From: a virus
DNA: 64,000 bases
Virus record (IMG/VR): IMGVR_UViG_3300021437_000011
Location: 28,247-92,246 of that record
Strand: one strand, 5' to 3'
Shown: piece after piece, positions 27,843-53,602 of the stretch
Numbering within the stretch: position 1 is the stretch's first letter
How the letters are laid out: the number at the start of each line of letters is the position of its first letter
Notes under the pieces: model-generated
The model's database searches: none
Told to the model about the DNA's origin: nothing
Seen by the model: only the letters and a program-made list of their open reading frames with translations
Translations under genes and position numbers: made by a program

Positions 27843-29938
27843 TGGCGGGAGAGCAAGCACAATTCGGCGCTCCCGCTGCTCCGGGAGCCACTGCTTTCTC
27901 TGAATGGGCGAAGGCTGGCGGGAAAGCTCCCGCCAGCGAATGGGACAAGTTTGGCCCCGCCGTCGCTCAGGCGCCCGCCAGCGAATGGGACCAATTTGGC
28001 CCCGCCGTCTCCCCAGAGACGGGAAAACCAAAAACATGGGGCGAATACGCCAAGGGCGTTGGCAGGTCGGCGGAGCAAGGGCTAACCTTTGGCTTCGGCG
28101 ATGAGATTAACGCCAATGCCCGCCACTACATCACCGGCGAGGACTACGACCAGGCGCTGGCTGATGAGCGGAGCAAACTCGCTCAGTTCAGAATATCGAA
28201 CCCTTATTCAGCATACGGGGCCGAGATCGGCGCGGGCATGGTCCTCCCCATGGGGGCGGCCGGAGGCGCAATGCGCGCCGGCGCAACTCTTGGGACTGCG
28301 GCCAAGGCTGGCGCCCTCACCGGAATGGGCCAAGGCGCTGCGTATGGCTTTGGCGCTGCTGAGGGGGGCGTTTTGCCCCGCGTCGCCGGTGCGGTTGAGG
28401 GCGGCGCGATTGGAGGCGCGGTAGGCGCGGCGGCTCCTGTCGTCGGCGCGGCTATTGGCGCTGGGGCGGGGGCTCTCGGCCGCGCTGCTGGGACGATTCT
28501 TAGCCCGACCGCCACCGCGGAGCGCTCTGCGGCCGAAGATATAGCCCATATGATCCAGCAAAGCGGCCTCGACCCGGCTGAGATAGCTGCGAATATGCGT
28601 CAGGGGCGTACTGGCTCGGCTGTTCCATTCAATGTGATTGACGCAGCGACCCAAACCGCTCGTGAAGCTGGTCGGCCTGGCGCTGACGTCGGACTTATCA
28701 ATGCGGCGCGAAACGCCGCAGGGACTGGCGGCCCTGCAGAGGCGATGGCCAGAGAGGCCCTCGAAACGCGCTTAGTAGACCAGCCCGCGCGTCTGCAGGA
28801 TCTTTTCTCTCGCGTAACAGGAGGACGCGATCTCGAAAGCGAGATGACGCGGCTTGATGCGGAAATCAATCAGAATGCTGGGACACGGTATCAGCAAGCA
28901 TACGCGAACGCGCGCGATTTCGACATTACGGCGGAAATGGGGCAATTTCTCGCGGGCAATGGCGAGATTCTCAAGACAAACTCCGGTCTTGGCGCTTCCG
29001 CACGCCAAGCCATCAGAATGTTTCTGGAGCGGCCAGACGCCATGGGCCGGGTTCGGCCCATCAGGACCGTCCCTGAATACATGGCCGTAAGGCGGTCTCT
29101 AGACGACATGATAGCCAAATCCATGGGCGCCAACGGCAGAGCCACTCCAGAGACACGGCTGCTGATGGACCTGCGTTCATCGATGAACGCGCCGAATGGC
29201 CCCGTAATGTCGGCTAATCCGCAGCTTGCGGCGGCGGACGCCATCTTTTCTGGCGCCAGGAGCGCTCAGGATGTGATGGCCCTTGGCGCTGGCGCGGTGA
29301 TGAAGGCTGGAGAGGAGCAACGCAGAGCTCTGACCCAGTTCGGCAGAATGACGCCTCCGCAGCAAGAGGCGTATCGCATTGGCGTCATGCAGAAGTTTGA
29401 CGACATGGTCACCTCGCAACGGTATCAGTCAACCATGCCAGCGAAGCAGTTTAACACCGAAGCGACTGAGAATTTTATTCGACGCGTATTCCCCCAAAAC
29501 CAAGCAGATAGGCTTTGGGGGGAAATCCAGCGCGAAAATATTGGAACGCGGACATTTGAAGGCGTTTTTAGCGGATCGCGTACAGCTCCAATGTTGTACC
29601 AGACCGAATACCGGGAATTGGCCCCAAGGATCGCTGGCAAGCTCGCATCCCTTGATATCCCCGGAACGATAAAAGCTATTGGAGACCTCGCCACCAAAAA
29701 TTACGGCGCGCAGAGGTCGCAAGAGCTGGTGCGCCAGCTTACCAGCATTGATCCCGCCGTCGCTCGCAATGCAGCCCGGACCATCGCGCAGATACCAGCC
29801 CGGACAGCAGCGGAAGAGGCAACTCGCCGTCGCGTTCGCTCCGCCCTGATCGGCGCCGCCCCAAAGATCGCAACGGAACAGCCTGCGTCCAGCAATGATC
29901 GCCAATACCAGATTAACGCCTTGAGGGGGCTAAGGTAA
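27842..29938 (+). CDS. Ejection (DNA transfer) protein
   Basis: QGLTFGFGDEI, G..YGFG..EGG; Gly/Ala-rich hydrophobic region. Confidence 0.7.
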   Translation: MAGEQAQFGAPAAPGATAFSEWAKAGGKAPASEWDKFGPAVAQAPASEWDQFGPAVSPETGKPKTWGEYAKGVGRSAEQGLTFGFGDEINANARHYITGEDYDQALADERSKLAQFRISNPYSAYGAEIGAGMVLPMGAAGGAMRAGATLGTAAKAGALTGMGQGAAYGFGAAEGGVLPRVAGAVEGGAIGGAVGAAAPVVGAAIGAGAGALGRAAGTILSPTATAERSAAEDIAHMIQQSGLDPAEIAANMRQGRTGSAVPFNVIDAATQTAREAGRPGADVGLINAARNAAGTGGPAEAMAREALETRLVDQPARLQDLFSRVTGGRDLESEMTRLDAEINQNAGTRYQQAYANARDFDITAEMGQFLAGNGEILKTNSGLGASARQAIRMFLERPDAMGRVRPIRTVPEYMAVRRSLDDMIAKSMGANGRATPETRLLMDLRSSMNAPNGPVMSANPQLAAADAIFSGARSAQDVMALGAGAVMKAGEEQRRALTQFGRMTPPQQEAYRIGVMQKFDDMVTSQRYQSTMPAKQFNTEATENFIRRVFPQNQADRLWGEIQRENIGTRTFEGVFSGSRTAPMLYQTEYRELAPRIAGKLASLDIPGTIKAIGDLATKNYGAQRSQELVRQLTSIDPAVARNAARTIAQIPARTAAEEATRRRVRSALIGAAPKIATEQPASSNDRQYQINALRGLR
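27927..28007 (+). repeat. Intragenic tandem duplication (APASEWDKFGPAV / APASEWDQFGPAV)
   Basis: Two near-identical units about 45 nt apart. Confidence 0.7.
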
Positions 29939-31074: not shown

Positions 31075-32210
31075 TGCCGTTTACTGGCAATACGTATACA
31101 GGCCCAGCCGGGTCAACCAACGCCACAGCCGGACAGGTTGTCCAGAGCGCGATTTGGAACGCCATCCATGGCGATCTGGCTACCGCCCTTACCACTTTGA
31201 TGACGCAGGCGAATACAAATGCGCCAGGATTCCAAAACGTCATGGCTCCGAATGGCAGCTTCCTGATCTGGCAGCGAGGGCTATCGATCGCCGTCCCAGC
31301 GTCAACGATAGCCTATACGGCCGATCGATGGTATCTGGCGACGGGGGCCACCGAGGCCAGCATTGTCGCCGCTGTTGCAGATCTTTCCGCAGGAGCGACG
31401 CCAAACTGCGCCGCCAAGGTTACGCGCAACTCCGGGCAGACCGGAACGGCGGTGGTGTCGTTTGGCTATCCATTTGACACTGATGAGATTTATAGGATGA
31501 GAGGGAGCCTGCTGTCGTTTAGCTGCGCGGTAAAATCTGGCGCCAACTGGTCTCCAGCCTCCGGGACGCTAACCGTCACGGTAGCATTCGGAACCGGGAG
31601 CGTGGGAAAGCGGGTGAACGGCTTTACTGCTGAAACCGTTGTCCTCACGATACCGACCAACCTCGCGGTAAGCAGCCCTAGAACAGTCATATCAGGAACA
31701 AGCACTGTAATAGTTCCTGTAAATTCTGGTCAGGGAGAAGTTCAGTTTACGTGGACTCCATCAGGCACCGCTGGCGCTGACGACAGCATCTCAATAGATG
31801 AGTGTTGCTTGGTTACTGGATCTCTTATCCAAAGCTTCACTGATATACCATTCCAGACCAGTCTTGATATGTGCAAAAGGCACTATCAGAAAACGTTCCC
31901 CTACGCCACTGCTCCGGCGCAAAACGCGGGAACCCAGGGCGCGTTGAGTCTGATCTCCGCGACATCAAAAGTCGGCCTGTTCTGGAAATTTGCGGACGAG
32001 ATGCGCGCTGCGCCGTGGGCTATCACCACCTATTCGCCAGGCGGGGCCACGGCGAACTGGTATGACCTCACGGGAGGCGTCAGTCTCGTCACTGTTGTCG
32101 ATGTGACCAACAGCGGCAGCACTATGGGGATTATGCTCTACAGCGCGGCGACTGCAGCCGCGGCTGACCACCTCATTTATCTTCACGCCGACGCCAACGC
32201 CTCAATTTGA
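31074..32210 (+). CDS. Tail fibre / receptor-binding protein
   Basis: NG.F.IWQRG...YTADRW ... CKRHYQK motifs. Confidence 0.75.
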   Translation: MPFTGNTYTGPAGSTNATAGQVVQSAIWNAIHGDLATALTTLMTQANTNAPGFQNVMAPNGSFLIWQRGLSIAVPASTIAYTADRWYLATGATEASIVAAVADLSAGATPNCAAKVTRNSGQTGTAVVSFGYPFDTDEIYRMRGSLLSFSCAVKSGANWSPASGTLTVTVAFGTGSVGKRVNGFTAETVVLTIPTNLAVSSPRTVISGTSTVIVPVNSGQGEVQFTWTPSGTAGADDSISIDECCLVTGSLIQSFTDIPFQTSLDMCKRHYQKTFPYATAPAQNAGTQGALSLISATSKVGLFWKFADEMRAAPWAITTYSPGGATANWYDLTGGVSLVTVVDVTNSGSTMGIMLYSAATAAAADHLIYLHADANASI

Positions 32211-32630
32211 TGGAGGCGTCCACTTGTATGTGTTCTGAATGTGCGTGAAATTAAGCATCTCGAACATGCCAATCGATGGGTAGTTTCGCGGGTTGATGTT
32301 GGCGAAGAGAGGCGCGTTCGACCTCTGCTGGAGCCTGACGACGGCTCGTGGCCCGCGCCCCTTTCCACGATATCGCCGAAGCAGGAAGAGCCCAACTTCA
32401 TTCGCCTTGGAAAGGTACATGGCTCCGACGCGCACGCCGTCGTCAACGAGCAACCACCAGTCCTTGTATGGGCGTCCCAAAACAAAATCAACGTGTGTGG
32501 GACGGCCTGGCATTGAAATGTGGCTGATATTGGTGGTCTCGTCTCTCTCAGCGAGCAGATCGTAGAGAAAATCAAGCGTCTCTGAGGGGGGCTCCCCCTC
32601 TTGCGGGTAGATGCTCACCAATTCGATCAC
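32202..32630 (-). CDS. GNAT N-acetyltransferase, PseH-like
   Basis: YRGKG.G and NINP.N..SI..FE.L.F; GTGA overlap with upstream gene; last gene of the sugar operon. Confidence 0.75.
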   Translation of the reverse strand: MIELVSIYPQEGEPPSETLDFLYDLLAERDETTNISHISMPGRPTHVDFVLGRPYKDWWLLVDDGVRVGAMYLSKANEVGLFLLRRYRGKGRGPRAVVRLQQRSNAPLFANINPRNYPSIGMFEMLNFTHIQNTYKWTPPSN

Positions 32631-33244
32631 GGCTGCTTCTCCAGAAGATGCCAAGTCACGTTATCGAGCCCAGTGGCGGGCTTCCACTCAAAGCCATAGG
32701 CGATGCATCTGAGGTCCGGGAATCGCTCCAGATAGAGCGAGCCGTAGTCGGCCTTCCATAGCGCGCCAGCGCGCCCTCGATATTCGACCGCCGTCACCTC
32801 CGGGCTGAAATATTCGATGGCGGCGATCCAGTGACTGGAAACCCGGTGAATCTCGTCCATGGCCGCCCCAAGCTTCGCAGGGGGGATATGAATCAGGACT
32901 CCTGAAGTGAAGACAAAATCATTCGAGGCGTCCTGAAGCGGAATTTGGCCAGCGCAGCCGCTCAGGACCTCCGCCCCGATATTGGTTTTCATGTACTCCC
33001 TAGCGCGCTGGTTGGGCTCGATGGCGGTCAACGCCACGGTGGGGCCAACCATATATCTGAGCGCTTTCAGGTTGGCTCCACATCCCGCGCCAATCTCAAC
33101 CGCCGATCTGATCTTTTCTTTCATCGCTCCAACGATTTTGAGAAGGAGTCGGCGGCGAGCCTCAATATTTTCGAACGAAGAGCAGTTCCTCTCGGTATAG
33201 TCATCGCCAAACTGACCTTCCCACAGCTTAAGATTATCATCCAT
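32627..33244 (-). CDS. Pseudaminic-acid-biosynthesis-associated SAM methyltransferase
   Basis: W.G.FGD.YT.RN, EIGAG.GANL, FVFTSGVLIHI, YRG...LWK.DYG. Confidence 0.88.
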   Translation of the reverse strand: MDDNLKLWEGQFGDDYTERNCSSFENIEARRRLLLKIVGAMKEKIRSAVEIGAGCGANLKALRYMVGPTVALTAIEPNQRAREYMKTNIGAEVLSGCAGQIPLQDASNDFVFTSGVLIHIPPAKLGAAMDEIHRVSSHWIAAIEYFSPEVTAVEYRGRAGALWKADYGSLYLERFPDLRCIAYGFEWKPATGLDNVTWHLLEKQP

Positions 33245-33875
33245 TCGACGACCTCAATATATCTTCAAGTCTCTTTATGTCTTCGGGGAAGTCTACACAG
33301 TAGTTAATGTCGGAAACATTGACCTTAGCCGCCAGTGTCCCTATGTCAAGGCGTTTATTATTTTGCATCCAGGGAGTTACGTGCTCCCTATCGTACGGAT
33401 CAGATGCCTCTCCGCTTGCCGCCTCCAGGCAACCCATGGTAAAGCATTCGCAATCGAACCCTTTTGGAAATGTCCTGGTGGGATGCACGTTCGATGCGTA
33501 GTCAAGATCCTCTTTTTTAAGCATCTCAAGCACGAGTTCGCATAACGCAGGATCAATGAACGGACAGTCCGCTGTCAAGCGCATGATGATATCGGCTTTG
33601 ACATCCTTGGCCGCCTCTTGATAGCGGCCGAGGACGTCATCCTCATCTCCAGCGAAAGCAAGAACGCGCATCTCTCGGCATAGGTTCAGGATGGGCAAGG
33701 ACGCCTCATCCTCTGGGAACGCGCACACCACTTTATCAATCCCAGAAATAAGTTTGGCCCTCGTTAGGACATGCTCCAGAACAGGCTTCCCGTCGAGAAG
33801 CGCCATGGTTTTTCCTGGAAATCTTCTTGAAGTCATCCTCGCTTGTATAATGCACGCGCTTACAATTCCGGTCAT
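33237..33875 (-). CDS. SpsF/PseF-like cytidylyltransferase
   Basis: IIQARM.S.RFPGK, G.EDDVL.RY, RLTADCPFIDP, REHVTP. Confidence 0.88.
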   Translation of the reverse strand: MTGIVSACIIQARMTSRRFPGKTMALLDGKPVLEHVLTRAKLISGIDKVVCAFPEDEASLPILNLCREMRVLAFAGDEDDVLGRYQEAAKDVKADIIMRLTADCPFIDPALCELVLEMLKKEDLDYASNVHPTRTFPKGFDCECFTMGCLEAASGEASDPYDREHVTPWMQNNKRLDIGTLAAKVNVSDINYCVDFPEDIKRLEDILRSSNG

Positions 33876-34618
33876 CCTGCCAGCCTTGTGTTAATCCCAT
33901 GGTCATGGAGATAGCGCCGCGCCCCCTGCGGCGTCATCTCGGCAAAAAGAAACCCCGCGCCAACGGCCACCGCGTCGGCGCCAACTTCGAACGCCTCAAG
34001 GAGATGAGCGTAATTCCCAGCGCCGCCAGCCGCGATAACGGGAACGCTGACGGCGGTCGAAACCTTTTGGATCAAATCACGATCAAATCCCGCCTCGCCG
34101 CCATCATGGGGAATGCTGGTTAAAATGATCTCTCCAACGCCATCTTCAACAGCGGCGCGCGCCATACATTCTGGACGTATATTATTGATTTTATTGCCAC
34201 ATTCCGTAATAACGCGATCATGGGCGACATCGATCGCGGCGACTATGGCCTGGGCGCCAAAGCGCTCAGACGCCGCGCGGATCAAAACACGATCAAATAA
34301 TGCGGAACCGAGCACAACCTTATCCGCGCCGGCGCGAAGGAGCTCGCGGATATGCTCCAACGTCGAAACCCCGCCTCCGATCGCTACGGGCATGAAGCAT
34401 TCAGCAGTGAACTCCCTCAGCTCGGCGAAGCGCGGCTCGCGGGCCTCTGGCGTCGCCGCGACATCGAGAATGACCAGCTCATCGATCTGACGCCGGTCAC
34501 ACACCCGGATAGCCTGCATAAGGGAGCCAACATGGCGCCGGTTGTGGAACTGCTTTCCCTTCACCAAGGATTTGCCATCCCACAAAAGCGTGGTGATAAC
34601 CCGCCTCTTGATCATCAC
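33872..34618 (-). CDS. HisF-like cyclase (WbuZ type)
   Basis: LVKG.QF, IDEL..LD, CFMP..IGGGV, GADKVV, GEIILTSI..DG. Confidence 0.9.
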   Translation of the reverse strand: MMIKRRVITTLLWDGKSLVKGKQFHNRRHVGSLMQAIRVCDRRQIDELVILDVAATPEAREPRFAELREFTAECFMPVAIGGGVSTLEHIRELLRAGADKVVLGSALFDRVLIRAASERFGAQAIVAAIDVAHDRVITECGNKINNIRPECMARAAVEDGVGEIILTSIPHDGGEAGFDRDLIQKVSTAVSVPVIAAGGAGNYAHLLEAFEVGADAVAVGAGFLFAEMTPQGARRYLHDHGINTRLAG

Positions 34619-35736
34619 GCGACCTCAAAAAGCGGCGTAGGACGCGGCGCGCTCAGGGACAAACTGAAGATCTGCTTGTTCGTGAATCGATCGGCCACAT
34701 TCACAAAATCATTGAGATTCAGGCCGAGGGGGCCGACGATTTCATGGAGCGGCTTTCCCAAGTAGGTCCAAGGGAACGCCCCGTCACGCTCCCTGACCAA
34801 GGCGACGGCTTCACTGCGTGCGAGTCTCCCGCGGCGGATATGGTTGCAGGCTATGTCGGTGGCGCGGCCGTAACCGTATTTCACCCACCGTAGATAATCA
34901 CGGCCGCCAGTGCAATAATTATCAAGATTCTCATAACCATAAAGGCTGCCTTCGATGTGACCGTCAATGTATTCAAATCCGCTTTGCTCTGCTATAACAA
35001 AGTTCTCATACCCATCCCATGGGAAATATCTCCCAAGCCATACGGATTGTATGCCTTTTTCCGAAAGAATGTCGCTAGACGGGAACCTATACATAGCCAT
35101 GTCATCGCATGACAGCCCTAAAATTTCCTGAACATCATCAACGCGCAGACCCAAAAGCCCAGCAAATTCCTCAATATAGCGACGCGTCATGCGTGGCGTA
35201 TCTTCGGAGCCAGCGGGGCCTGCTCCGTATTCGTCCTGAGATAGCTCGCCAAAGACGATTGTTGGGATATTCCACTTCACGGCTGCCTGGAAGGGAATGG
35301 TGTGGATTAGCACATGCTCCGGCCACGACCAGTCGCCCACCTCAGTCAGAGCCAAGCGCATGATCCGATGGCGGACCTCATCATTGGGGTGAAATTCGAC
35401 GAGATCGCACATCCGGCCGATATTGTCCAGATTGCGTCGCCCGATTGGCGTCAACATGTCAGTCCGCGCGTTGACGGCGAGGACCCGGAAACCAAGATCC
35501 TTGCATTTCACAACCTGCGCCGTGCTATCCTTTCCGCCGCTGACGGGGACAATCACGAGGGGCTCCCCCTTATGCCGCCAGCTCAGCTCCACCGTCTTCG
35601 CGAATTCCACGGCCCTGGCGGCCCAGTCGACGGCTTGGCGGCGGTCATAATTCTGGCAGGCGGAACACAGGCCATCTTCATCAAAGCGAAGGTCTGGTTT
35701 CAGTTCGGGGTAAACGCAGCGTATGCAGTATCTCAT
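34615..35736 (-). CDS. N-acetyl sugar amidotransferase (WbuX/PseA type)
   Basis: C.RC.YP..KP...FD..G.CSAC, PP-loop VSGGKDS, KYGYGRAT. Confidence 0.9.
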   Translation of the reverse strand: MRYCIRCVYPELKPDLRFDEDGLCSACQNYDRRQAVDWAARAVEFAKTVELSWRHKGEPLVIVPVSGGKDSTAQVVKCKDLGFRVLAVNARTDMLTPIGRRNLDNIGRMCDLVEFHPNDEVRHRIMRLALTEVGDWSWPEHVLIHTIPFQAAVKWNIPTIVFGELSQDEYGAGPAGSEDTPRMTRRYIEEFAGLLGLRVDDVQEILGLSCDDMAMYRFPSSDILSEKGIQSVWLGRYFPWDGYENFVIAEQSGFEYIDGHIEGSLYGYENLDNYCTGGRDYLRWVKYGYGRATDIACNHIRRGRLARSEAVALVRERDGAFPWTYLGKPLHEIVGPLGLNLNDFVNVADRFTNKQIFSLSLSAPRPTPLFEVA

Positions 35737-35748
35737 AAAATTTACCCC

Positions 35749-36762
35749 TTATTCGAACATTCCCTCTGACAATGCTGTTCCCTTATCGAGGTCTCTTCTA
35801 GATTTTTTTCCCAGAACTCCAGAATATTTGCTAGGGTCCAACCCATATCCTGGACGTATTACTTTAACATTGTCACACGTGAAACATTCTCCTTTTTTTA
35901 TGTCTTCGACGACGTAGATTGACCTTTTCATTTGCATGCTGGTTTCTTCGCTTCTTGGAGCCTCGCATTGCATGGCGGCCCATGCCATTTCGACGGAGCT
36001 GACGAAGTCGCGGAAGCGCTCCGGGCGGCAGGCAAAGTCCTCGTCAGCGCTCCCGCGCTCTCCAATGTGCTTTTCAATGACGCGCACCCCGCACGCAACG
36101 GCGGCGATCGCCGTGATGTTGTTGATGGTATGGTCGCTGAAACCAATCTCATGGCGAGAAAAGCGGCTCTGCAGATTCCTGATAGACCACAGATTGGCCT
36201 CCCGAACTGGTGTGGGGTAGCCCGACACACAGTGCAGAATGACGACGTCGCGCCCATAGAGGGCGTCCAGAGCCGCATTGATGTCATAGAGGCTTGCCAT
36301 GCCCGTGGAGATAATGACGGGCTTCTGCGTCTCGCGAACGCGCTCCAAAAGCTGAAAATGGTTGATCTCGGCCGATGCGATTTTATAGGCGGGGCAGTCG
36401 ATTTCCTCTAGAAAATCAACATCCTCAACCGAGAACGGGCTGGAGAAAATCGGAACGCCCAAGCCTTCCGCAGCATCAAAAAGCGGCCTGTGCCACTCGC
36501 GAGGCGTCATCGCCTCGCTGTACAGGTCATAGAGGTTCCGCCCTTTCCAGGCGCCGCCCTTGATCTCGAAGTCCGGGCCATTGCACTTGATCGTCAGGCT
36601 ATCGGGAGTGTAGGTCTGGATCTTGATCGCCCCAGCGCCGGCGCGCGCTGCGTCAACGACAAGCTCTTGGGCCTGCTCCAGGTCGCCACAGTGACCGCTT
36701 CCGATCTCCGCAATGGTAAGGGGCGGGCGGTTGAGCCCGAAGTCGTACCCAAGGATATTCAT
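35749..36762 (-). CDS. pseI: Pseudaminic acid synthase (NeuB family, C-terminal SAF domain)
   Basis: IAEIG..H.G, K.QTYTPD, YKIAS.E, IISTGMA, LHCVSGYP, GFSDHT, IEKH, IRPG.GL.P. Confidence 0.88.
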   Translation of the reverse strand: MNILGYDFGLNRPPLTIAEIGSGHCGDLEQAQELVVDAARAGAGAIKIQTYTPDSLTIKCNGPDFEIKGGAWKGRNLYDLYSEAMTPREWHRPLFDAAEGLGVPIFSSPFSVEDVDFLEEIDCPAYKIASAEINHFQLLERVRETQKPVIISTGMASLYDINAALDALYGRDVVILHCVSGYPTPVREANLWSIRNLQSRFSRHEIGFSDHTINNITAIAAVACGVRVIEKHIGERGSADEDFACRPERFRDFVSSVEMAWAAMQCEAPRSEETSMQMKRSIYVVEDIKKGECFTCDNVKVIRPGYGLDPSKYSGVLGKKSRRDLDKGTALSEGMFE

Positions 36763-37373
36763 TTGAAGATCTCCAACATCGACAAATCTGGATATTGATC
36801 GTTATGCAGATCAGGATTGCATCGAGGCAGGGAATGGAGCTTCAACAGCCCCTGGGCAGATGTTGATGGATTCATATAGCAATGCCATCCCAGCATAGGA
36901 AAAGCGTCGTTTTTCGGGGCTACGCCCTCAGTCCGGCCATCAAATCGCGCGCGGCGGAACCAAGCGTCAGCCTCGGGATCATCATGAAGGATAGCGCCGC
37001 CCTGCTCTAGCCCCAGGATCTTGGAAGCGTGGAAAGAGACGCAAACATACTTGTAGTCCTCCTCGCGCCCCGTGGTTGCGAACATCCTCCACGTAAAGCG
37101 CCTAGCAGCATCGTAAATTCTGTGCGGCCACAGCCGGTAAGCGCCCCTCCATGGTCTATCCTCAAATTTAACCGTTCCTCCAGCATGGATAATGCTCATG
37201 GGGACACTGACATATGTACGTTTTGGGATAATAACTTCGCCTACGCATTTATATTTACAGCATAAGAATAGAGCCATTGTGCACGAATTCACAGCAACGG
37301 CGTAAGGAGCGCCAGTATATTCGCATAGCGCTTCTTCGAAATCTTTCGTTACCTGATGTGGGTTGCGCGTCAT
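36759..37373 (-). CDS. Short DegT/DnrJ PLP aminotransferase (PseC-like)
   Basis: FE..L..YTGAPYAVAVNSCT.AL, SFH.SK.L..EQGG; only about 204 aa. Confidence 0.8.
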   Translation of the reverse strand: MTRNPHQVTKDFEEALCEYTGAPYAVAVNSCTMALFLCCKYKCVGEVIIPKRTYVSVPMSIIHAGGTVKFEDRPWRGAYRLWPHRIYDAARRFTWRMFATTGREEDYKYVCVSFHASKILGLEQGGAILHDDPEADAWFRRARFDGRTEGVAPKNDAFPMLGWHCYMNPSTSAQGLLKLHSLPRCNPDLHNDQYPDLSMLEIFK

Positions 37374-37374
37374 C

Positions 37375-38334
37375 TTAAACGGACCCAAGCAGCATCTTCA
37401 GGTCATCCGTCGACAGCCACTTATCATTGCGCTCCGAACTCAGCGAGAAACCCTCTTCCATGGGCTCGCTGGGCAAGAGCCAAGGCGGGCAGACGACGAA
37501 GGCGTATTCGTTCTGCGTCGCCGTCCGCCCCTCGTGGACAGTGATAATATCCTCGTGGAGCTTTTCTCCTGGTCGAACGCCAATGATTTCGCACGGGTAA
37601 TCATCCTGGCCATAGATTGCGGCGGCCAGATCCGAGATGCGAAAGCTGGGCATCCGCGGGATGAAGACCTCGCCGCCTTGCATTACGCCCAGACCATTCA
37701 GGACAAACTCCACGGCGTCTTGAATTGTAATCCAAAAGCGGGTCATGTCGAGGTGAGTGACGGGCAACGGCCTGCCCAGGGCGGACAGGAAGCGCCACCG
37801 GGGGATAACGGACCCGCGCGAGCCCGAAACGTTGCCGTAGCGAACGACCGAAAAGGCGGGGCCTCCCGCGCTGGTGAGATTGTTGGCGGCGACAAACAGC
37901 TTCTCGGCTGAGAGTTTCGTGGCTCCGTAAAGATTCGCTGGAGAAACAGCCTTATCCGTGGACAGAGCTATGACTTTAGCTACGCCGCAGGCCAGGGCGG
38001 CGCTTATGACATTGGACGCGCCTCCAATGTTGGTTTTAATCGCTTCAATGGGGTCTTTTTCGCATGCTGGGACGATCTTCATCGCCGCGGCGTGGATCAC
38101 GACGTCCACGCCCTTGAACGCCATTTTGAGACGATTCTCATCACGAACATCGCCAATATAAAACCGGAGCCGATCATCGGCGAGGGACTCCGGCCGCGCC
38201 AACGCCATAGCCTCTTGCTTCTGTTCGTCGCGCGAATAGATGGCGATTTTGGCGATGTTCCGGTCAAGGAGCAGCCTATCCACGATCGCTTGGCCAAAAG
38301 TGCCGGTTCCGCCAGTAATGAGAACGCTGTTCAT
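37375..38334 (-). CDS. pseB: UDP-GlcNAc 4,6-dehydratase (inverting)
   Basis: ITGGTGTFG, SRDE.KQ, GDVRD, HAAA.K.VP..E, STDKA..P.NLYGATK, RYGNV.GSRGSV, MTRFWIT, RPGEKLHE. Confidence 0.92.
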   Translation of the reverse strand: MNSVLITGGTGTFGQAIVDRLLLDRNIAKIAIYSRDEQKQEAMALARPESLADDRLRFYIGDVRDENRLKMAFKGVDVVIHAAAMKIVPACEKDPIEAIKTNIGGASNVISAALACGVAKVIALSTDKAVSPANLYGATKLSAEKLFVAANNLTSAGGPAFSVVRYGNVSGSRGSVIPRWRFLSALGRPLPVTHLDMTRFWITIQDAVEFVLNGLGVMQGGEVFIPRMPSFRISDLAAAIYGQDDYPCEIIGVRPGEKLHEDIITVHEGRTATQNEYAFVVCPPWLLPSEPMEEGFSLSSERNDKWLSTDDLKMLLGSV

Positions 38335-38723
38335 GCGCCAGCCTCCTTTTGCTCGGGAATCCCGACCATCCACGCCGGGGGGAGGACAAAATCATAATGG
38401 AGGGGGCGCCAGAGATGGAGGCAGTTGACGTGGTTGTTGATATGGTCGGATTCGGCGACATGGAATTGAACCGCTACCTCATGGGGCAGGAAAAACGCCC
38501 TTTTGATGAATTCCATTTCGATCCAATTGGGAACCCGGTTCTTGCGGCTCACGGACACATGGTCCCAACCTTCTCCAGAAGAAGCGATGACGCACATAAA
38601 CGCTTTATCAATGGGCGACATGAGGAAGAATCGCCCGCAGGAATCATCCCCATATCCGCCGTATATTGCAATGACATCACGAGACCTGTCCCTAAATTGG
38701 TTCAGGTCATTCAAGTTCCGCAT
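38331..38723 (-). CDS. Conserved phage hypothetical protein
   Basis: GWDHVSVS...R.P.W.EM..IK..FF...H...SDHIN.H..CLHLWRP pattern. Confidence 0.75.
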   Translation of the reverse strand: MRNLNDLNQFRDRSRDVIAIYGGYGDDSCGRFFLMSPIDKAFMCVIASSGEGWDHVSVSRKNRVPNWIEMEFIKRAFFLPHEVAVQFHVAESDHINNHVNCLHLWRPLHYDFVLPPAWMVGIPEQKEAGA

Positions 38724-38996
38724 GCGTGTACTCCAATGCCAGCGCAAGGCGCGCTAAAATACTTCGTATTGGAGGAGGGGGTCCAATCCAGGAGCTTTCC
38801 GTCATGGAATCTTAAAAGTCAATCTATTTTAATGACTTGTCTGGGGAAATTAGTTCGTGAGCTGATTAATAGGAACTTGGTTACGACAAAAAGTAGATAA
38901 AAATCAACAAAAACAGTAAACGTTTCTTGATATATGTGGTAACACCGCTCATGTTACGAGCGAGTATATTCTAAATTTCCAAAGGGACATGAGAGA

Positions 38997-39209: not shown

Positions 39210-39259
39210 AAAATAACCCGAGCCGCTGAGCCATCACCAGCGGCTCGGGTTGCATTTTT
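39210..39259. terminator. Bidirectional intrinsic terminator
   Basis: 14-bp stem AACCCGAGCCGCTG/CAGCGGCTCGGGTT with an A-tract on the left and a T-tract on the right. Confidence 0.8.
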
Positions 39260-39617
39260 CATGGGAGCGTTGATTCGTGCCGGAATATGCCTGGGCAAGT
39301 CGTCTCGTACGCAAATGGTCCCATCAGTTCACTTCGTGCATACGCATAAGGTAGACGTATCCGACGTGCGCTTCATGCAGTAAATATCCCGTGCGATCTT
39401 GCTTGTGTTGGCCCATGTCGAGATGGACGTGCTTCGTGCAGCGGGCGTCACTTAAGCGTACTAGCCGTCTTTGCAAATCGAGCTTAAGCGCTGGGAATCA
39501 ATTGGATCGCTCGTGCTTTTTCACGGCGCGCCTCTTCGTGCAAGCATGAGAGCCAGCGAAGGCGCGTGCATCCCAGCCCGCATTGAAGTTGCTGGCCTAG
39601 CCGGATCGAACATGTAG

Positions 39618-40133
39618 TCGTGGATCGTGCTCGCGTGGAAGATATAGGCTATTCGCTAATACCCCTGTAATTATTACTCGTGCCTCCGTGCTCGCGTGGA
39701 GGATACCGATCTATGACAATCACATTTGATCACCTCCGCCGTGCATCCGCGTTCGCGTGGGGGATACACGATATTCGATTTGTAGGCGAAGCCCCACGCC
39801 CGTGCATCCGCGTTCGCGTGGGGGATGCTATAAACTTTGTTGCGGTATGCCATAGGATTCCCGTGCATCCGCGCTCGCGTGGAGGATACTATTAATTTTC
39901 TTGCAGCGATGTTATACCCTGCCGTGCATCCGCGCTCGCGTGGAGGATACGGGATCACCCATTGATCCGGGCCGTTATTCGCCCGTGCATCCGCGCTCGC
40001 GTGGAGGATACACCTCCGCATCCCATTTCGGGCCAGATCGGGCCCGTGCATCCGCGCTCGCGTGGAGGATACTAAAGCTCGATGGCGTCGGCGACGGTGA
40101 GGGCCCGTGCATCCGCGCTCGCGTGGAGGATAC
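39618..40133 (-). CRISPR. CRISPR array: 9 repeats (29 nt, type I-E-like, GTATCCTCCACGCGAGCGCGGATGCACGG) and 8 spacers of 32 nt
   Basis: Repeats start at 39618 (degenerate, 28 nt), 39678, 39739, 39800, 39861, 39922, 39983, 40044 and 40105, a 61-nt period. Degeneration increases leftward, placing the leader on the right (minus-strand transcription). Confidence 0.96.
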
Positions 40134-40409
40134 CCTTCCGCGTAAGCGTATGATCCATATATCAAAGAGCACGGATAGCTTCGCCCACCACCACAGGAAC
40201 GCTTTATTCCCCCGTCTTCGTGCGCCGACTCGTAGACCGCGAATACACACGTTCCGCCGCCAAGCTACACTCTAGTGCCGTTGCCTTGCTGTCGGCTCAC
40301 TCCCCCGAGGGTTTGTGCTGCGCACCCGCTTGGCCTTACACGGCAGCCCCCTGAAACCTCAGCTTCAGAGGGCGGGCAGTTACTTTCCCCCGCACGCGAG
40401 GGTAGGGGA
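40134..40409 (-). ncRNA. Putative omegaRNA/tracrRNA-like scaffold and array leader
   Basis: Lies between the tnpB-like stop and the first repeat. Minus strand reads UACCCUCGCGUGCGGGGGAAAGUAACUGCCCG...GUAAGGC...CGAAGACGGGGGAA, resembling IS605 omegaRNA landmarks from memory. Contains a hairpin at ~40348-40372 and CCGUGCUC, complementary to the repeat 3' end. Confidence 0.55.
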
Positions 40410-41831
40410 TCAATCCCAAGCTCGTTTGAGCTGGCTAGCCGCCTTGGCGATCTGGCCTTGCTCATATTCATTTTGCGCGGCGTTGGCTTGCCGCGAAACG
40501 TAATTACCGCAATCGCATATTAGCATGCGCTTTTCAAGAGGCATGTAATGGAGTTTCCCACACCGCGAGCATTTTTGCACCTCGGGAAAGAGCGTATGCG
40601 TTTCGTTGTACGTGCGACCGCGGTCGACAGCCTTGTATCCAAGGTAGCCCCGGAACTGCGCCATGGCGGCGCGCTTGTTCGCTTTTGTCAGGATTTTAGG
40701 AACTCTTTCAACATCTCCCGTCTGTTTGTTAACCCTTTTTGTCGTCATGAGCGATTTAACATCCATCTTATGCACAGTTATCGTGTCGAACTGCTTAACG
40801 ATCGCGTCAGAGACCTTATGCAGCATATCGTCGCGTCGATTGCGCTCCTTGGCGTGGAGATTCGCCAATTCGTCGGCTGTCTTGTAATAATCCTTCGTCC
40901 CCTTATGGCGGCGCGCCAAACGTCGGTTAGCGAGCCTGATGCGCCGCGCCAGCTTCCTGTCCTCTTTCATCGGCGGCGTTTGCTGGATTTTTTCCCCGTC
41001 GAATGTGGTCGCCAGAATGCTGGCGGAGATCTTGACGCCGCATTCGCGCCCGAAGTGTGGATAGGGTTTGGGGTCAGGGACTTCGAATTGACAAGACAGC
41101 CACCACTGCTCTCCCAGACGCCAGATGCGCCCTCCCTGCAGCTTGCCGTCAATAGGGACGCCCTCTTGCCTGAAGGTGATAGCTTGTTTCAGCTTCGGCA
41201 GCTTCACCTCTCGGGCTTTGTGGTCAAATATTGTTTGAGTGTTGACCATATAGACGCTCCCTACGGCATAGCGCGACTTTTTGAAGCGGGGGAACCCTGT
41301 GTCTCTTCCTCCAGCCCCGTCTTTGCGCTTCTTCCGCTCAAGGAGCATGGTTTTTATGGCTTTGACGACATCCTTACAGACCTGCTGAGAGGAGTGTGAG
41401 GGAAGCGCCTCAATCCATTTCATGGTCGGATTCTCCTTGAGACGAGCCATGATCTTCTGAAGATCGCTTTCCCAAATAAAAAGTTTGGGAGGCTCTCCAT
41501 CCACAGAGGAACCGGAAATTTTTTGGTAATGGTCTTGCGGCGGCTCTACAGGCTCCTTCCCTTCTCCAGGTTTTTTCTTAACAATTCCATACTTTGTTTT
41601 CTTGCCATATTTCCAGGAATGGAGAGCATCCGCATATCCCTCCTTAACGACTTGCGCCCAAATCTCGCGCCAGCGTAATTCTGGGCGGAATTTTGATCCG
41701 TCGTAGGCCGCCTGCTCCATCCCAAGCAGCAAATTCCACAGGTTTATGCCTCCTCGACGCCACCGATCCATGGTCCTCGCCTGCTCGGGCGTCGGCTTCA
41801 GCTTTATCTTAACCCCACGCATTACCGCCAT
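40410..41831 (-). CDS. Nuclease-dead TnpB/Cas12-like RNA-guided protein (TldR-like), CRISPR-associated
   Basis: KIKLKPTPEQ N-terminus, GFPRFKK, VKLPKL, WWLSCQFEV; RuvC-I GVKIS (D to K267), RuvC-II ITVHKMDV (E to H354), CSRC/CDC zinc finger, RuvC-III SRQANAAQN (D to Q448). Confidence 0.88.
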   Translation of the reverse strand: MAVMRGVKIKLKPTPEQARTMDRWRRGGINLWNLLLGMEQAAYDGSKFRPELRWREIWAQVVKEGYADALHSWKYGKKTKYGIVKKKPGEGKEPVEPPQDHYQKISGSSVDGEPPKLFIWESDLQKIMARLKENPTMKWIEALPSHSSQQVCKDVVKAIKTMLLERKKRKDGAGGRDTGFPRFKKSRYAVGSVYMVNTQTIFDHKAREVKLPKLKQAITFRQEGVPIDGKLQGGRIWRLGEQWWLSCQFEVPDPKPYPHFGRECGVKISASILATTFDGEKIQQTPPMKEDRKLARRIRLANRRLARRHKGTKDYYKTADELANLHAKERNRRDDMLHKVSDAIVKQFDTITVHKMDVKSLMTTKRVNKQTGDVERVPKILTKANKRAAMAQFRGYLGYKAVDRGRTYNETHTLFPEVQKCSRCGKLHYMPLEKRMLICDCGNYVSRQANAAQNEYEQGQIAKAASQLKRAWD

Positions 41832-42205
41832 TTATTCCCTGCCTTTAGCCATTGCCGTGATTTTATGAATGTGTGAACATATGGTATGCAACCATACTTG
41901 TCATCCAACCAAAGTGGAGGAGTTTATGCGCTGCGCATACACGGTGGTTATAGAGTGCGGAGAAATAACATGTAATGAAAGAGAAAAATCATGCGTTTTC
42001 TTAGCGATAAGGCGAACAGGCTCAGAGGCTGTCTGCTTATTTCCTCACGGCGGACCCCTTAATGGCAAGAGGGTCACTCCCCTGCGGACAAGAGAGGGGT
42101 GGGTCATCAGATCCGAGGACTGCAAAGACGCTTTCAAGGTTGTCGATAGCGAGTAGCGCATTAAGAAATAACCATATTCCAGGCAAAATATGCATAGGTA
42201 TCAAG

Positions 42206-44038
42206 ATGAGTGCGAATGCAAGTTACAAGAATAAGGTAGAAATTCCGCGCATAAAACCAAAAAAAAACCAGAAAGAACCGCAATTTATTTTCACTGATAA
42301 CGCAGGCAATAAAAGACGCGTTAACTATGTACTAAAAAATGACTCATATTTTTTCAGAGCTTGTGATGTTTGGTCTGCATGCACTTTATATGAAAAAGGA
42401 TTTTTAATTTCACATCTTAAATCAGTCGGCGACGTAGAGAAGATTCTCTTTGATAAAAATTCATGGTGTCCGTCCACGCGACCAACATATGCAATAACCC
42501 TTCAGCAAGCCCTCAAAGCGTGCAACGAACTGCCAGGGGGGCCTCATGGCGTTGAAACGTGGCTCAGGGACAACTTCCTCTCTCCAGAGGCAAGGAATCA
42601 AAGCCCCCTCCTCGTCATTGCCGCAGCGGACCCCATCCCAATCGCTCCCCCCGAGACGCCCGCCGCCGCGCTAATCACTTCCGCCAATGGCGAGATATCC
42701 TATGTGTTGCGCTGCAGGCAGGATGCGCCGCGCCAAGCGTGGCGGTTGCCAGCCGTAAAGCATGGCGAGACGGTCTTTTGGCCAGAACGCCTAGGCGTTG
42801 ATATCAATGACATCAACGAGATATTAGGCGTTGATGTCGTCGATTCCGTGCAGAACCGCTTATGGGCGCATCGGGACGTCCAGGATCAGACGCATCGCCT
42901 GATCGACAGCCCCTGCTGGGATAAAATGAAGGCGCTCCCCGCGATCCGCAACGCTAACCCTGACCTAGTCGCGGCGTATAGCGCGCTCTTCGCGTTGAGC
43001 GTGGGGGGAAATGGAGCGCAAGAGACCGTTAATGGAGAATCTGAAGCCAAGCAAGGAGTCTCCCAGCAAAAGAAAGCGGACGCAGGCGATCAGCCAGCGA
43101 TAGTCGCTTGGCCCCTTGCGAGCAAATCTCTCGCCCCTCCTGCGGAAGCCCCTCTCTCCCCCATGCAGTCGCGTTCCTTTGACTTCTCCACAGCTACCCA
43201 TCATGTAACGCATGTTTATGCGGCTATGGACGACGAAGGGCGGCTCTGGGTGTCAAGACCGTCCTTGAATAACGTTTTTGGGGTCGTACAGGGATGGCCG
43301 CTCGCTGCAAGGAACGCTCCAAGAAGACAGATCCTTTGCGAAGGAGAAAGCGTGGCGGCCATCTGCGAGACTAACATTCCCCTGCTGGTCGGAGGCCAGG
43401 AGGGGAAGAACAAGATTTTGGGACTGGATTTTGAGCATTGGCTGGCGGCGGAGGTTTCTCCAGCATTCATCGACTCAGCCCCTCCGTCAGCCATTATGAA
43501 GATAGAGGGCAAGGAGGCTTCTTTCTTTTTTCAAGGGTTCAGTTACCTGATCCGCGTAGCTAAAGATGAGGAAGAAGATCTCTGGGTGGCTATCTCCGAT
43601 GTTGAGAGGCTACTCGACCATCCTCTCAAAAATTGGCAAGGAGGCGCCCGAACCTCTCCCCGGCGTCTGATATCCCTAAATGGGACGACATTTCCAGCCA
43701 TATCGGAAGAGTGGATCGAAAGTATCGCAGCGGGAGCGCCGCCCAGTCGGAAAAACAGATCGAAGGCTTTCGTTCAATGGTGGACCGATAGCGTATGGCC
43801 CATGTTTAGCGCCCAGCCTAGCGCCACGCCATCTCTCGCGCCAACGCTCGCGCCAACGCTCGCCAGCCAGGCGCGAGAGGCCGCGCGCCTGCTGGTCCTG
43901 TTGGCCGACGAATCCGATGCTCTGCGCGCAGAAAATGCTCAGTTGAAGGCTGAGAACGCGGATGTAAAGGAGATGAAGACGACGCTCGCGAAAAAAATCG
44001 CGAGCGTTCAGGAAGCGCTTGGAAAAATAATAGCCTAG
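42206..44038 (+). CDS. Antirepressor-like protein with several degenerate Bro-N-like segments and C-terminal coiled coil
   Basis: Recurring segments: YFFRACDV; DDEGRLWVS...FEHWLAAEVSP; DEEEDLWVAISDV...AFVQWW.DSVWP. Confidence 0.5.
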   Translation: MSANASYKNKVEIPRIKPKKNQKEPQFIFTDNAGNKRRVNYVLKNDSYFFRACDVWSACTLYEKGFLISHLKSVGDVEKILFDKNSWCPSTRPTYAITLQQALKACNELPGGPHGVETWLRDNFLSPEARNQSPLLVIAAADPIPIAPPETPAAALITSANGEISYVLRCRQDAPRQAWRLPAVKHGETVFWPERLGVDINDINEILGVDVVDSVQNRLWAHRDVQDQTHRLIDSPCWDKMKALPAIRNANPDLVAAYSALFALSVGGNGAQETVNGESEAKQGVSQQKKADAGDQPAIVAWPLASKSLAPPAEAPLSPMQSRSFDFSTATHHVTHVYAAMDDEGRLWVSRPSLNNVFGVVQGWPLAARNAPRRQILCEGESVAAICETNIPLLVGGQEGKNKILGLDFEHWLAAEVSPAFIDSAPPSAIMKIEGKEASFFFQGFSYLIRVAKDEEEDLWVAISDVERLLDHPLKNWQGGARTSPRRLISLNGTTFPAISEEWIESIAAGAPPSRKNRSKAFVQWWTDSVWPMFSAQPSATPSLAPTLAPTLASQAREAARLLVLLADESDALRAENAQLKAENADVKEMKTTLAKKIASVQEALGKIIA

Positions 44039-53528: not shown

Positions 53529-53602
53529 TGGCTGGGAGGAAGGGTTTCGAACCCCCATCTCTTGGCTCAAAACCAAGGGTCCTGCCGTTAGACGACCTCC
53601 CA
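53529..53602 (-). tRNA. tRNA-Gln (TTG) with encoded CCA
   Basis: TGGGAGG acceptor arm, D arm, CTTGG-TTTTGAG-CCAAG anticodon arm, GGTTCGAAA T-loop, 3' GCCA. Confidence 0.9.

Follow-up and report, generated by a model that had tools for sequence, protein, structure and literature searches.

Can a CRISPR array of type I-E format serve a single TnpB-like protein that has lost its nuclease centre, and if so, to which class of system does such a locus belong? The question is raised by a 64,000-nucleotide stretch of viral DNA, referred to here as the window, which comprises bases 28247-92246 of the 92,246-bp IMG/VR virus record IMGVR_UViG_3300021437_000011, rated complete by CheckV. The minus strand of the window carries a gene for a 473-amino-acid TnpB/Cas12-like effector, followed by a 275-nt non-coding stretch and by a repeat array on the same strand (Table 1). 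The record is that of a phage from freshwater, and genes for a major head protein (phrog_9953, E 2e-106) and for lysis assign it to the tailed phages.

The locus most likely belongs to a type V-like system that is carried by phages, has an adaptation module of type I-E and uses its effector as a DNA binder or silencer. Comparison with related loci has shown that the effector, the RNA and the array are inherited together, that an anti-repeat in the RNA covaries with the repeat, and that Cascade genes are absent. The three parts very probably form one functional module.

A TnpB-like effector with a replaced RuvC triad

A preliminary description of the locus had reported a TnpB-like protein of 473 residues with all three RuvC acidic residues replaced, an intact zinc finger and an insertion of about 70 residues in the recognition (REC) lobe, and all of these points have been confirmed. 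The effector matches OrfB_IS605 (E 5e-14) and Cas12f1-like_TNB (E 2e-7) in Pfam, and guided_TnpB in NCBIfam with 146 bits (cut-off 100). When aligned to ISDra2 TnpB by phmmer (8exa/8h1j, E 3e-22), its residues K267, H354 and Q448 fall on D191, E278 and D361, and the same three substitutions are found in the family alignment; the D-E-D triad is absent from the effector, and its loss is conserved family-wide. In the zinc finger, cysteines C421, C424, C439 and C441 do not vary within the family. The insertion comprises 76 amino acids near the N-terminus (residues 44-120) and has no counterpart in canonical TnpBs. An AlphaFold2 model built from 24 relatives has a mean pLDDT (predicted local distance difference test) of 85.7, and its closest structures are the TnpBs 8h1j, 8iaz and 8exa (Foldseek E ~1e-18, target template-modelling score 0.76-0.87), with Cas12f, Cas12p, Fanzor2 and Cas12m2 as the next matches. 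The WED-REC-RuvC-TNB architecture of the TnpB/Cas12 superfamily can thus be seen both by sequence and by fold. The hallmarks of an IS200/IS605 TnpB are missing, as there is no Y1 TnpA in the phage and the gene is single-copy and has conserved synteny with an array.

A word-indexed search yielded 165 relatives of the effector, and when 1.84 billion representative proteins were searched exhaustively with a profile, about 35 full-length clusters were obtained at E <1e-100. After the family, profile scores fall sharply, with canonical TnpBs at 1e-72 and weaker and matching only from about residue 116 on. Lysine occupies the RuvC-I position in 28 of 32 representatives, with arginine, alanine or histidine in the rest; the RuvC-II position is H, Q, D, E or R, and the RuvC-III position mostly R, N, Q, H or K. 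Across the family, the zinc finger is retained, while the length of the N-terminal insertion varies between 66 and 226 residues. The nearest canonical TnpBs have D-E-D and are without the insertion. In a maximum-likelihood tree the family is monophyletic (100/100) against four canonical TnpBs and forms a branch apart from them.

Family members were found in viral and metagenome contigs only. No relative was found among 185,579 GTDB genomes scanned with one peptide pattern, a single-protein scan of viral contigs found nothing, and deposited phage genomes contain no family member, their best matches being canonical TnpBs at ~25% identity. The family is thus a rare and monophyletic lineage with a dead RuvC. 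A distant relative of 499 amino acids, P0252, has a family-like N-terminal insertion but E, D and D-like residues at the RuvC positions, and may stand between active TnpB and the dead lineage.

Conserved linkage of effector, RNA and array

All 15 distinct loci with downstream DNA (window included) have an array of 61-nt period on the gene strand, and a homolog of the non-coding stretch is present in each of the 15. The suggestion that the dead effector and the I-E-like array constitute one module, with homologs likewise neighbouring arrays, has therefore held across the loci compared. In this stable linkage of one TnpB-derived effector to a CRISPR array downstream of it, the loci agree with type V.

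One clade has Cas1 and then Cas2 inserted after the effector, ahead of the non-coding region and the array. Cas1 of these relatives is Cas1e (TIGR03638, 288-302 bits against a cut-off of 215.6) and Cas2 is Cas2e (TIGR01873), so that adaptation of the I-E type, as had been predicted, is encoded beside the array itself. Relatives combine the I-E adaptation module with 29/32 arrays; the window has the array format only. The complete 92-kb phage record contains no Y1 TnpA, Cas1, Cas2e, Cse1 or Cas7e, in agreement with the earlier failure to recognise tnpA, cas1, cas2, cas6 or Cascade genes, and three relatives' phage records searched whole contain no Cas6e, Cas7e or Cse1. A type I-E Cascade was thus not found in the four phage records by its Cse1 and Cas7e subunits; Cse2, Cas5e and Cas3 were not searched for. 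The sole Cas6e signal in the window's phage is a sub-threshold match to PF08798 (15 bits, E 1e-3) at 27597-27851 on the minus strand, which has an internal TGA, lies inside a large plus-strand open reading frame (ORF) and is most likely due to chance. The window copy is a reduced member of the family, belonging to a subclade without cas1-cas2 and having a weak anti-repeat. As the phage has no cas1-cas2, new spacers would need the I-E module of a host.

Apart from cas1-cas2, no partner gene is conserved beside the effector across loci. This bears on the idea that the guide-bound dead effector brings in a further activity, for example a nuclease of the host or phage, a recombinase or a polymerase factor, instead of acting as a plain roadblock. 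Dead Cas12/TnpB relatives have been co-opted for transposition (V-K) and for sigma-factor-dependent transcription (PMC10691335, PMC13472631), and an uncharacterised 658-amino-acid protein is encoded divergently beside the effector gene. That neighbour, however, has no Pfam or PHROG family match and was not noticed beside the effector in relatives, and with only cas1-cas2 conserved at this place, recruitment seems improbable.

A conserved RNA with an anti-repeat

The segment between the effector gene and the array had been described as structured and 276 nt long. It is non-coding, measures 275 nt, and shows conservation and covariation, but its folding energy is no better than that of shuffled sequence (z-score -0.15), so that the claim of structure finds support in the comparison of loci and not in the thermodynamics of the single copy. 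A region of ~285 nt upstream of the arrays can be aligned across 12 loci and contains invariant blocks. RNAalifold gives 29 consensus pairs for it, 17 of them with compensatory changes. An RNA profile built without the window has a single match in the phage genome, namely the conserved core listed in Table 1 (E 3.7e-7), whereas an Rfam search of the region gave nothing credible.

An anti-repeat follows directly after the conserved G-run motif of this RNA and is complementary to the first ~22 positions of the repeat of its own locus. Pairing was scored by a register-based test; a duplex-energy search over large regions was uninformative, with GC-rich shuffles folding equally well. In ten loci, 17-21 of the first 22 repeat positions are paired, and the best ungapped pairing in each of the ten reaches a shuffle p <= 0.002. 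Two mismatch positions are conserved, and compensatory changes are found at several positions. Anti-repeats form 17.6/20 pairs with their own repeat versus 15.1/20 with the repeats of other loci. The closest relative with DNA (L018, 71% protein identity to the window effector) has 17/18 pairs (p 0.004), and another locus, L020, has 15/17 (p 0.006). Such a covarying anti-repeat is the signature of a putative trans-activating CRISPR RNA (tracrRNA)-type element, a class 2 feature foreign to type I-E.

A phage-encoded dead effector together with an RNA complementary to I-E-type repeats could also be read as an anti-CRISPR decoy that sequesters the precursor CRISPR RNA (pre-crRNA) of a host I-E system, as has been proposed for a phage dead-RuvC Cas9 with a matching tracrRNA (PMC10910872). 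The anti-repeat, however, tracks the phage's own repeat, and the loci have arrays of their own (up to 29 repeats), Cas1e-Cas2e of their own and fast spacer turnover, all of which make a decoy very unlikely.

Within the last ~45 nt before the first repeat, one conserved block looks like a -35 element, and a motif comes near the IHF consensus. The aligned loci share this motif as A(T/C)CA(G/T)-N4-TTR, and the same hexamer is found at the leader-repeat junction in most of them. We take the motif to be comparable with the IHF site of E. coli I-E leaders. The -35-like block, the IHF-like motif and the junction hexamer can together be interpreted as I-E leader features.

Two freshwater metagenome DNA runs contain the locus, and no RNA run is among those listed. 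In the second of the two (run X2), the gene and the trailer are present at 100% identity; no contig extends across the spacers, and no conclusion was drawn from this. The same run contains a variant of the non-coding RNA region 40206-40308 with six differences and with unlike sequence toward the array, as if from a related strain whose array differs, the depth being too low for a conclusion.

Array format, spacers and adaptation

The same-strand array of nine repeats in the preliminary description was recovered as eight clear repeats and one degenerate repeat at 39618, with a period of 61 nt. The five leader-proximal repeats are identical and the degenerate copies lie at the gene-distal, low-coordinate end, which places the leader on the gene side. 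Family arrays comprise 4-29 repeats, and 147 of the 148 spacers across the examined loci are 33 nt long after a 28-nt repeat core, i.e. the I-E format of 29+32. All seven window spacers between clear repeats start with G in the crRNA sense, which we take to be the base derived from the protospacer-adjacent motif (PAM) that is expected of I-E acquisition from what is known in E. coli. In the arrays of L009, L010, L011, L014, L015, L017 and L021, the second spacer base is a pyrimidine in ~80% of spacers (78/97), and this bias may be a PAM-derived signature unlike the G/GG start of the window's subclade.

The format raises the question of whether the array serves the type I-E Cascade of a host against competitors, with the dead TnpB-like protein, for example, regulating or stabilising the transcript. 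Repeat and spacer format are those of I-E, the window repeat aligns by eye to ~20/29 positions of the E. coli I-E repeat, the phage is without adaptation or processing genes, and L026 retains a strong I-E hairpin in its repeat (z -3.55). L026 is alone in this, however, as most family repeats are without a stable hairpin, and that of the window is unstable (-7.3 kcal/mol, z -0.13) and thus offers no stable substrate for Cas6e. The loss of most repeat hairpins argues against Cas6e processing, and the use of Cas6e that had been envisaged as possible is not supported; the family has a covarying anti-repeat in the conserved upstream RNA instead. Among GTDB representative genomes, no host array with the repeat core of the window was found, with two chance single hits only. 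Given further that the repeat covaries family-wide with a tracr-like anti-repeat and always stands beside the effector, service to a host Cascade is unlikely, and a module that works through its own effector is the preferred reading.

Direct comparison of two loci from different samples, L015:9476-10286 and L016:9476-10286, provides information on the rate of spacer exchange. Between the two, the effector is 98.9% and the non-coding region 98.8% identical, cas1-cas2 reach 97.6%, the repeats agree fully (100%), and flank identity overall is 97.6-99.7%, yet 13/13 comparable spacers are unrelated. Spacer turnover must therefore be much faster than that of the flanks, and the comparison gives good evidence that adaptation is active in cas1-cas2-bearing members. 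Other differences among arrays have been observed as well. The L015 array contains one spacer twice (21st and 26th). The same array is found in two samples at L017:2566-3040 and L031:4795-5205, where the fifth (internal) spacer of L017 is absent from L031, which suggests spacer loss or recombination within arrays. At L013:9525-9700, the three repeats nearest the leader have a deletion that makes them shorter than the repeat of the remaining array.

One window spacer (Table 1) matches the methyltransferase gene of Mesorhizobium phage Lo5R7ANS at 32/35 positions (E 1e-3), a gene that is a homolog of the target and not the target itself. The mismatches look like third-codon positions, and the source of the spacer was probably a related gene carried by some other phage or mobile element. 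Window spacers have no match beyond 13 nt in their own phage genome, comparison of the 148 spacers with four phage genomes and with all loci gave neither self- nor cross-targets, and the spacers of L015 and L024 have no match in deposited phages.

Comparison with known systems

Independent origins of type V from TnpB now number ~50, and inactivated effectors are known or predicted in V-C, V-K, V-M, V-O and V-P (PMC12669027, PMC10691335). Interference of the Cas12m type consists of tight DNA binding and transcriptional silencing (PMC10442227, PMC12669027). Cas12m (V-M) and other inactive type V effectors (V-C, and the predicted V-O and V-P) are, like the family described here, small TnpB-derived effectors with a non-canonical RuvC beside an array, and Cas12m likewise has an insertion in the REC region. 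Nevertheless, Cas12m is not the same family. In a PDB profile search, the family profile matches Cas12m4a at E 1e-4 versus 2e-37 for ISDra2 TnpB; the window effector scores 33 bits against PADLOC Cas12u1 versus 365 against 'Cas12_x2'; the triad of the family is K-x-(Q/R/N) and not HDD or HQK; and the repeats are of 28-29 nt in I-E format and not of 36 nt, with a tracr-like RNA and, in relatives, Cas1e-Cas2e. For Cas12f, PADLOC models give <=139 bits versus 365 for 'Cas12_x2', and the PDB profile search an E-value of 1e-7 versus 2e-37 for TnpB. Judged by these scores, the family is not Cas12m, and probably not Cas12f proper. Cas12m as reported for a myxophage was also considered and rejected, since that protein retains D-E-D and the sequences of the family do not place it in V-M.

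Cas12r of Thermus Lalka phages is similar in layout, being a phage TnpB-like effector followed by a short array with 29-bp I-E-like repeats and 32-33-bp spacers. It has no adaptation genes, host I-E adaptation has been proposed for it, and it has been read as a weapon in conflicts between mobile elements (bioRxiv 10.64898/2026.04.20.719267). The RuvC of Cas12r, however, is active, as D238A abolishes interference, and no tracrRNA is needed, whereas in the family described here RuvC is dead and an anti-repeat RNA is conserved; relatives of the window effector also encode Cas1e-Cas2e themselves.

TldRs are nuclease-dead TnpB descendants as well, and act as transcriptional repressors through RNA-guided DNA binding, some of them being phage-encoded (10.1101/2023.11.30.569447; PMC13622181). 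They have one fixed guide beside a partner gene (fliC, csrA or oppF), without array or adaptation genes, whereas the window family has multi-spacer arrays with turnover. Since the family uses arrays, identity with TldR was rejected.

Type I-E shares with the family Cas1e and Cas2e (in relatives), the 61-nt repeat-spacer unit, the IHF-like leader site and, in the window's subclade, the G at the repeat-spacer junction. It differs in its interference machinery. No Cse1 or Cas7e was found here (Cas3 was not searched for), Cas6e is represented by the sub-threshold signal only, the repeat hairpin is mostly lost, and the effector is a single protein of class 2.

In the TranC model, reportedly put forward by Jin et al. 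in 2025, the omegaRNA of TnpB splits into a tracr-like scaffold and an array-borne crRNA, and TranC proteins are said to be active nucleases. A conserved scaffold with an anti-repeat upstream of the array fits such splitting of an omegaRNA. TranC itself (PDB 9jfo) is only a distant relative (E 1e-16).

The preliminary description had conveyed the sense of a system not seen before, and in this respect it has to be corrected. The PADLOC-DB 2.0 profile 'Cas12_x2', labelled a V-F effector, matches the L013 effector end to end with 1102 bits and the window effector with 365 bits (E 2e-109). The family was therefore already catalogued by 2023. No text was found that describes its dead RuvC, I-E adaptation, anti-repeat RNA or phage restriction, though it may correspond to one of the V-U, V-O or V-P groups of PMC10691335 or PMC12669027. 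With a typing profile in existence, the gain lies in anatomy and comparative evidence and not in a first sighting.

Proposed mechanism

The locus would be expressed as one minus-strand unit comprising the dead effector, an omegaRNA-derived scaffold of ~250 nt with an anti-repeat, a leader of I-E type and an array of 28+33 nt, the format of which would be the product of a Cas1e-Cas2e integrase. The scaffold RNA would base-pair with the array transcript at its repeats, a host RNase, e.g. RNase III, would probably trim the duplex so formed, and the effector would load it with the spacer 3' of the repeat as guide. The complex would bind matching DNA beside a 5' motif and remain bound without cutting, and would keep competing phages, further mobile elements or genes of the host from being transcribed or replicated, in the manner of Cas12m and TldR (PMC10442227; 10.1101/2023.11.30.569447). 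The eight window spacers would either be fixed or be extended only with a host I-E integrase. In I-E and type V systems alike, the spacer borders on the upstream repeat with its PAM-proximal end, and for this reason I-E adaptation suits a TnpB-type effector. The same argument for I-E adaptation has been made for Cas12r (bioRxiv 10.64898/2026.04.20.719267).

The whole chain, from scaffold and anti-repeat RNA through the I-E-format array to a dead effector that binds without cutting, appears reasonably likely on the comparative evidence. The corresponding history, in which a phage-restricted, adaptive, nuclease-dead class 2 system arose by loss of RuvC activity, splitting of the omegaRNA into a tracrRNA and capture of the I-E integrase, leader and array, is possible and is offered tentatively.

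Several points weigh against this interpretation. That the effector loads crRNA, binds DNA and silences is deduced from sequence. The RuvC-II position is variable, with an acidic residue retained there in a few family members, and a conserved aspartate, D357, lies three residues past it. Among the 148 spacers examined across the loci, a likely kind of target is indicated for one. The anti-repeat of the window is weak, with 11/11 nt paired at p 0.03 and 13/15 where its homologs lie, cas1-cas2 are absent from this copy, and three repeats are degenerate, so that the copy could be decaying.

The last points would fit a module that is a remnant without current function in this phage, as would the repeat debris in the trailer beyond the degenerate distal repeats. 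The effector ORF, however, is intact, has 83% identity to its nearest relative and retains every family-invariant residue; there is no difference among the five repeats nearest the leader, the core of the RNA has been conserved, and the gene recurs at 100% identity in a second metagenome. It is hence doubtful that the module is a mere remnant, and the binding-and-silencing mechanism outlined above is preferred for the window copy as well.

Features and surroundings of the locus

The features of the locus are summarized in Table 1. Sites of the promoter and terminator consensus type are no commoner in the region than in shuffled sequence. Megablast of the locus against deposited phages gave no match.

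Table 1. Features of the effector-array locus, in window coordinates.
Feature	Position	Strand	Basis
Promoter-like site upstream of effector gene	41876..41904	-	Consensus scan, 9/12 matches; weak evidence
RuvC-dead TnpB/Cas12-like effector, 473 amino acids	40410..41831	-	Pfam, NCBIfam, phmmer, family alignment, AlphaFold2 model, PADLOC
Conserved non-coding RNA, read as omegaRNA-derived tracrRNA-like scaffold	40160..40409	-	12-locus alignment, covariation, profile match
Conserved core of RNA	40159-40295	-	Profile match
G-run motif in RNA	40206-40213	-	12-locus alignment
Candidate anti-repeat, homologous position	40188-40202	-	13/15 pairs by hand
Candidate anti-repeat, best ungapped	40167-40177	-	11/11 pairs with repeat positions 14-24, p 0.03
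Conserved CTCTTTGA block in RNA	40160-40169	-	12-locus alignment
Leader-proximal segment beside first repeat, IHF-like motif at 40143-40155	40134..40159	-	Alignment
CRISPR array, nine repeats (28-nt core + G), 32-33-nt spacers, period 61	39618..40133	-	Repeat analysis
Spacer resembling phage DNA adenine-methyltransferase gene	39769..39800	-	Homology to Mesorhizobium phage Lo5R7ANS
Trailer with decayed repeat-like words, e.g. 39565-39593 (66% to repeat)	39270..39617	-	Repeat analysis
Terminator-like hairpin closing unit	39215..39251	-	15-bp stem and T run; called strong

The divergent neighbour of the effector gene, the 658-amino-acid ORF at 42062-44038 on the plus strand, has a tail that is first rich in alanine and proline and then coiled-coil-like. 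Between the array trailer and the genes beyond it, a DUF7694 protein is encoded at 38331-38747 on the minus strand (Pfam E 3e-25; phrog_7839, of unknown function). Just beyond the array, at 32202-38373 on the minus strand, are putative sugar-modification genes, the translations of which resemble a NeuB/PseI-like synthase, an aminotransferase-like protein and a CapD/PseB-like dehydratase. The phage has one tRNA gene at 53532-53602 on the minus strand (Rfam tRNA, 53.6 bits).

Implications

If the proposed mechanism is true, a natural programmable DNA binder of ~470 amino acids with 32-33-nt guides would be available for gene-regulation tools. For the family itself, the locus bears on the origin of type V systems from TnpB, as capture of an adaptation module, splitting of the guide RNA and later loss of cas1-cas2 could be followed within one family. 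It also bears on the conflict of phages with other phages and with their hosts. Phages would carry an adaptive, silencing, non-cutting system built from parts of both CRISPR classes, and with it a heritable and updatable silencer, similar to CRISPR interference, of rival elements or host defences.

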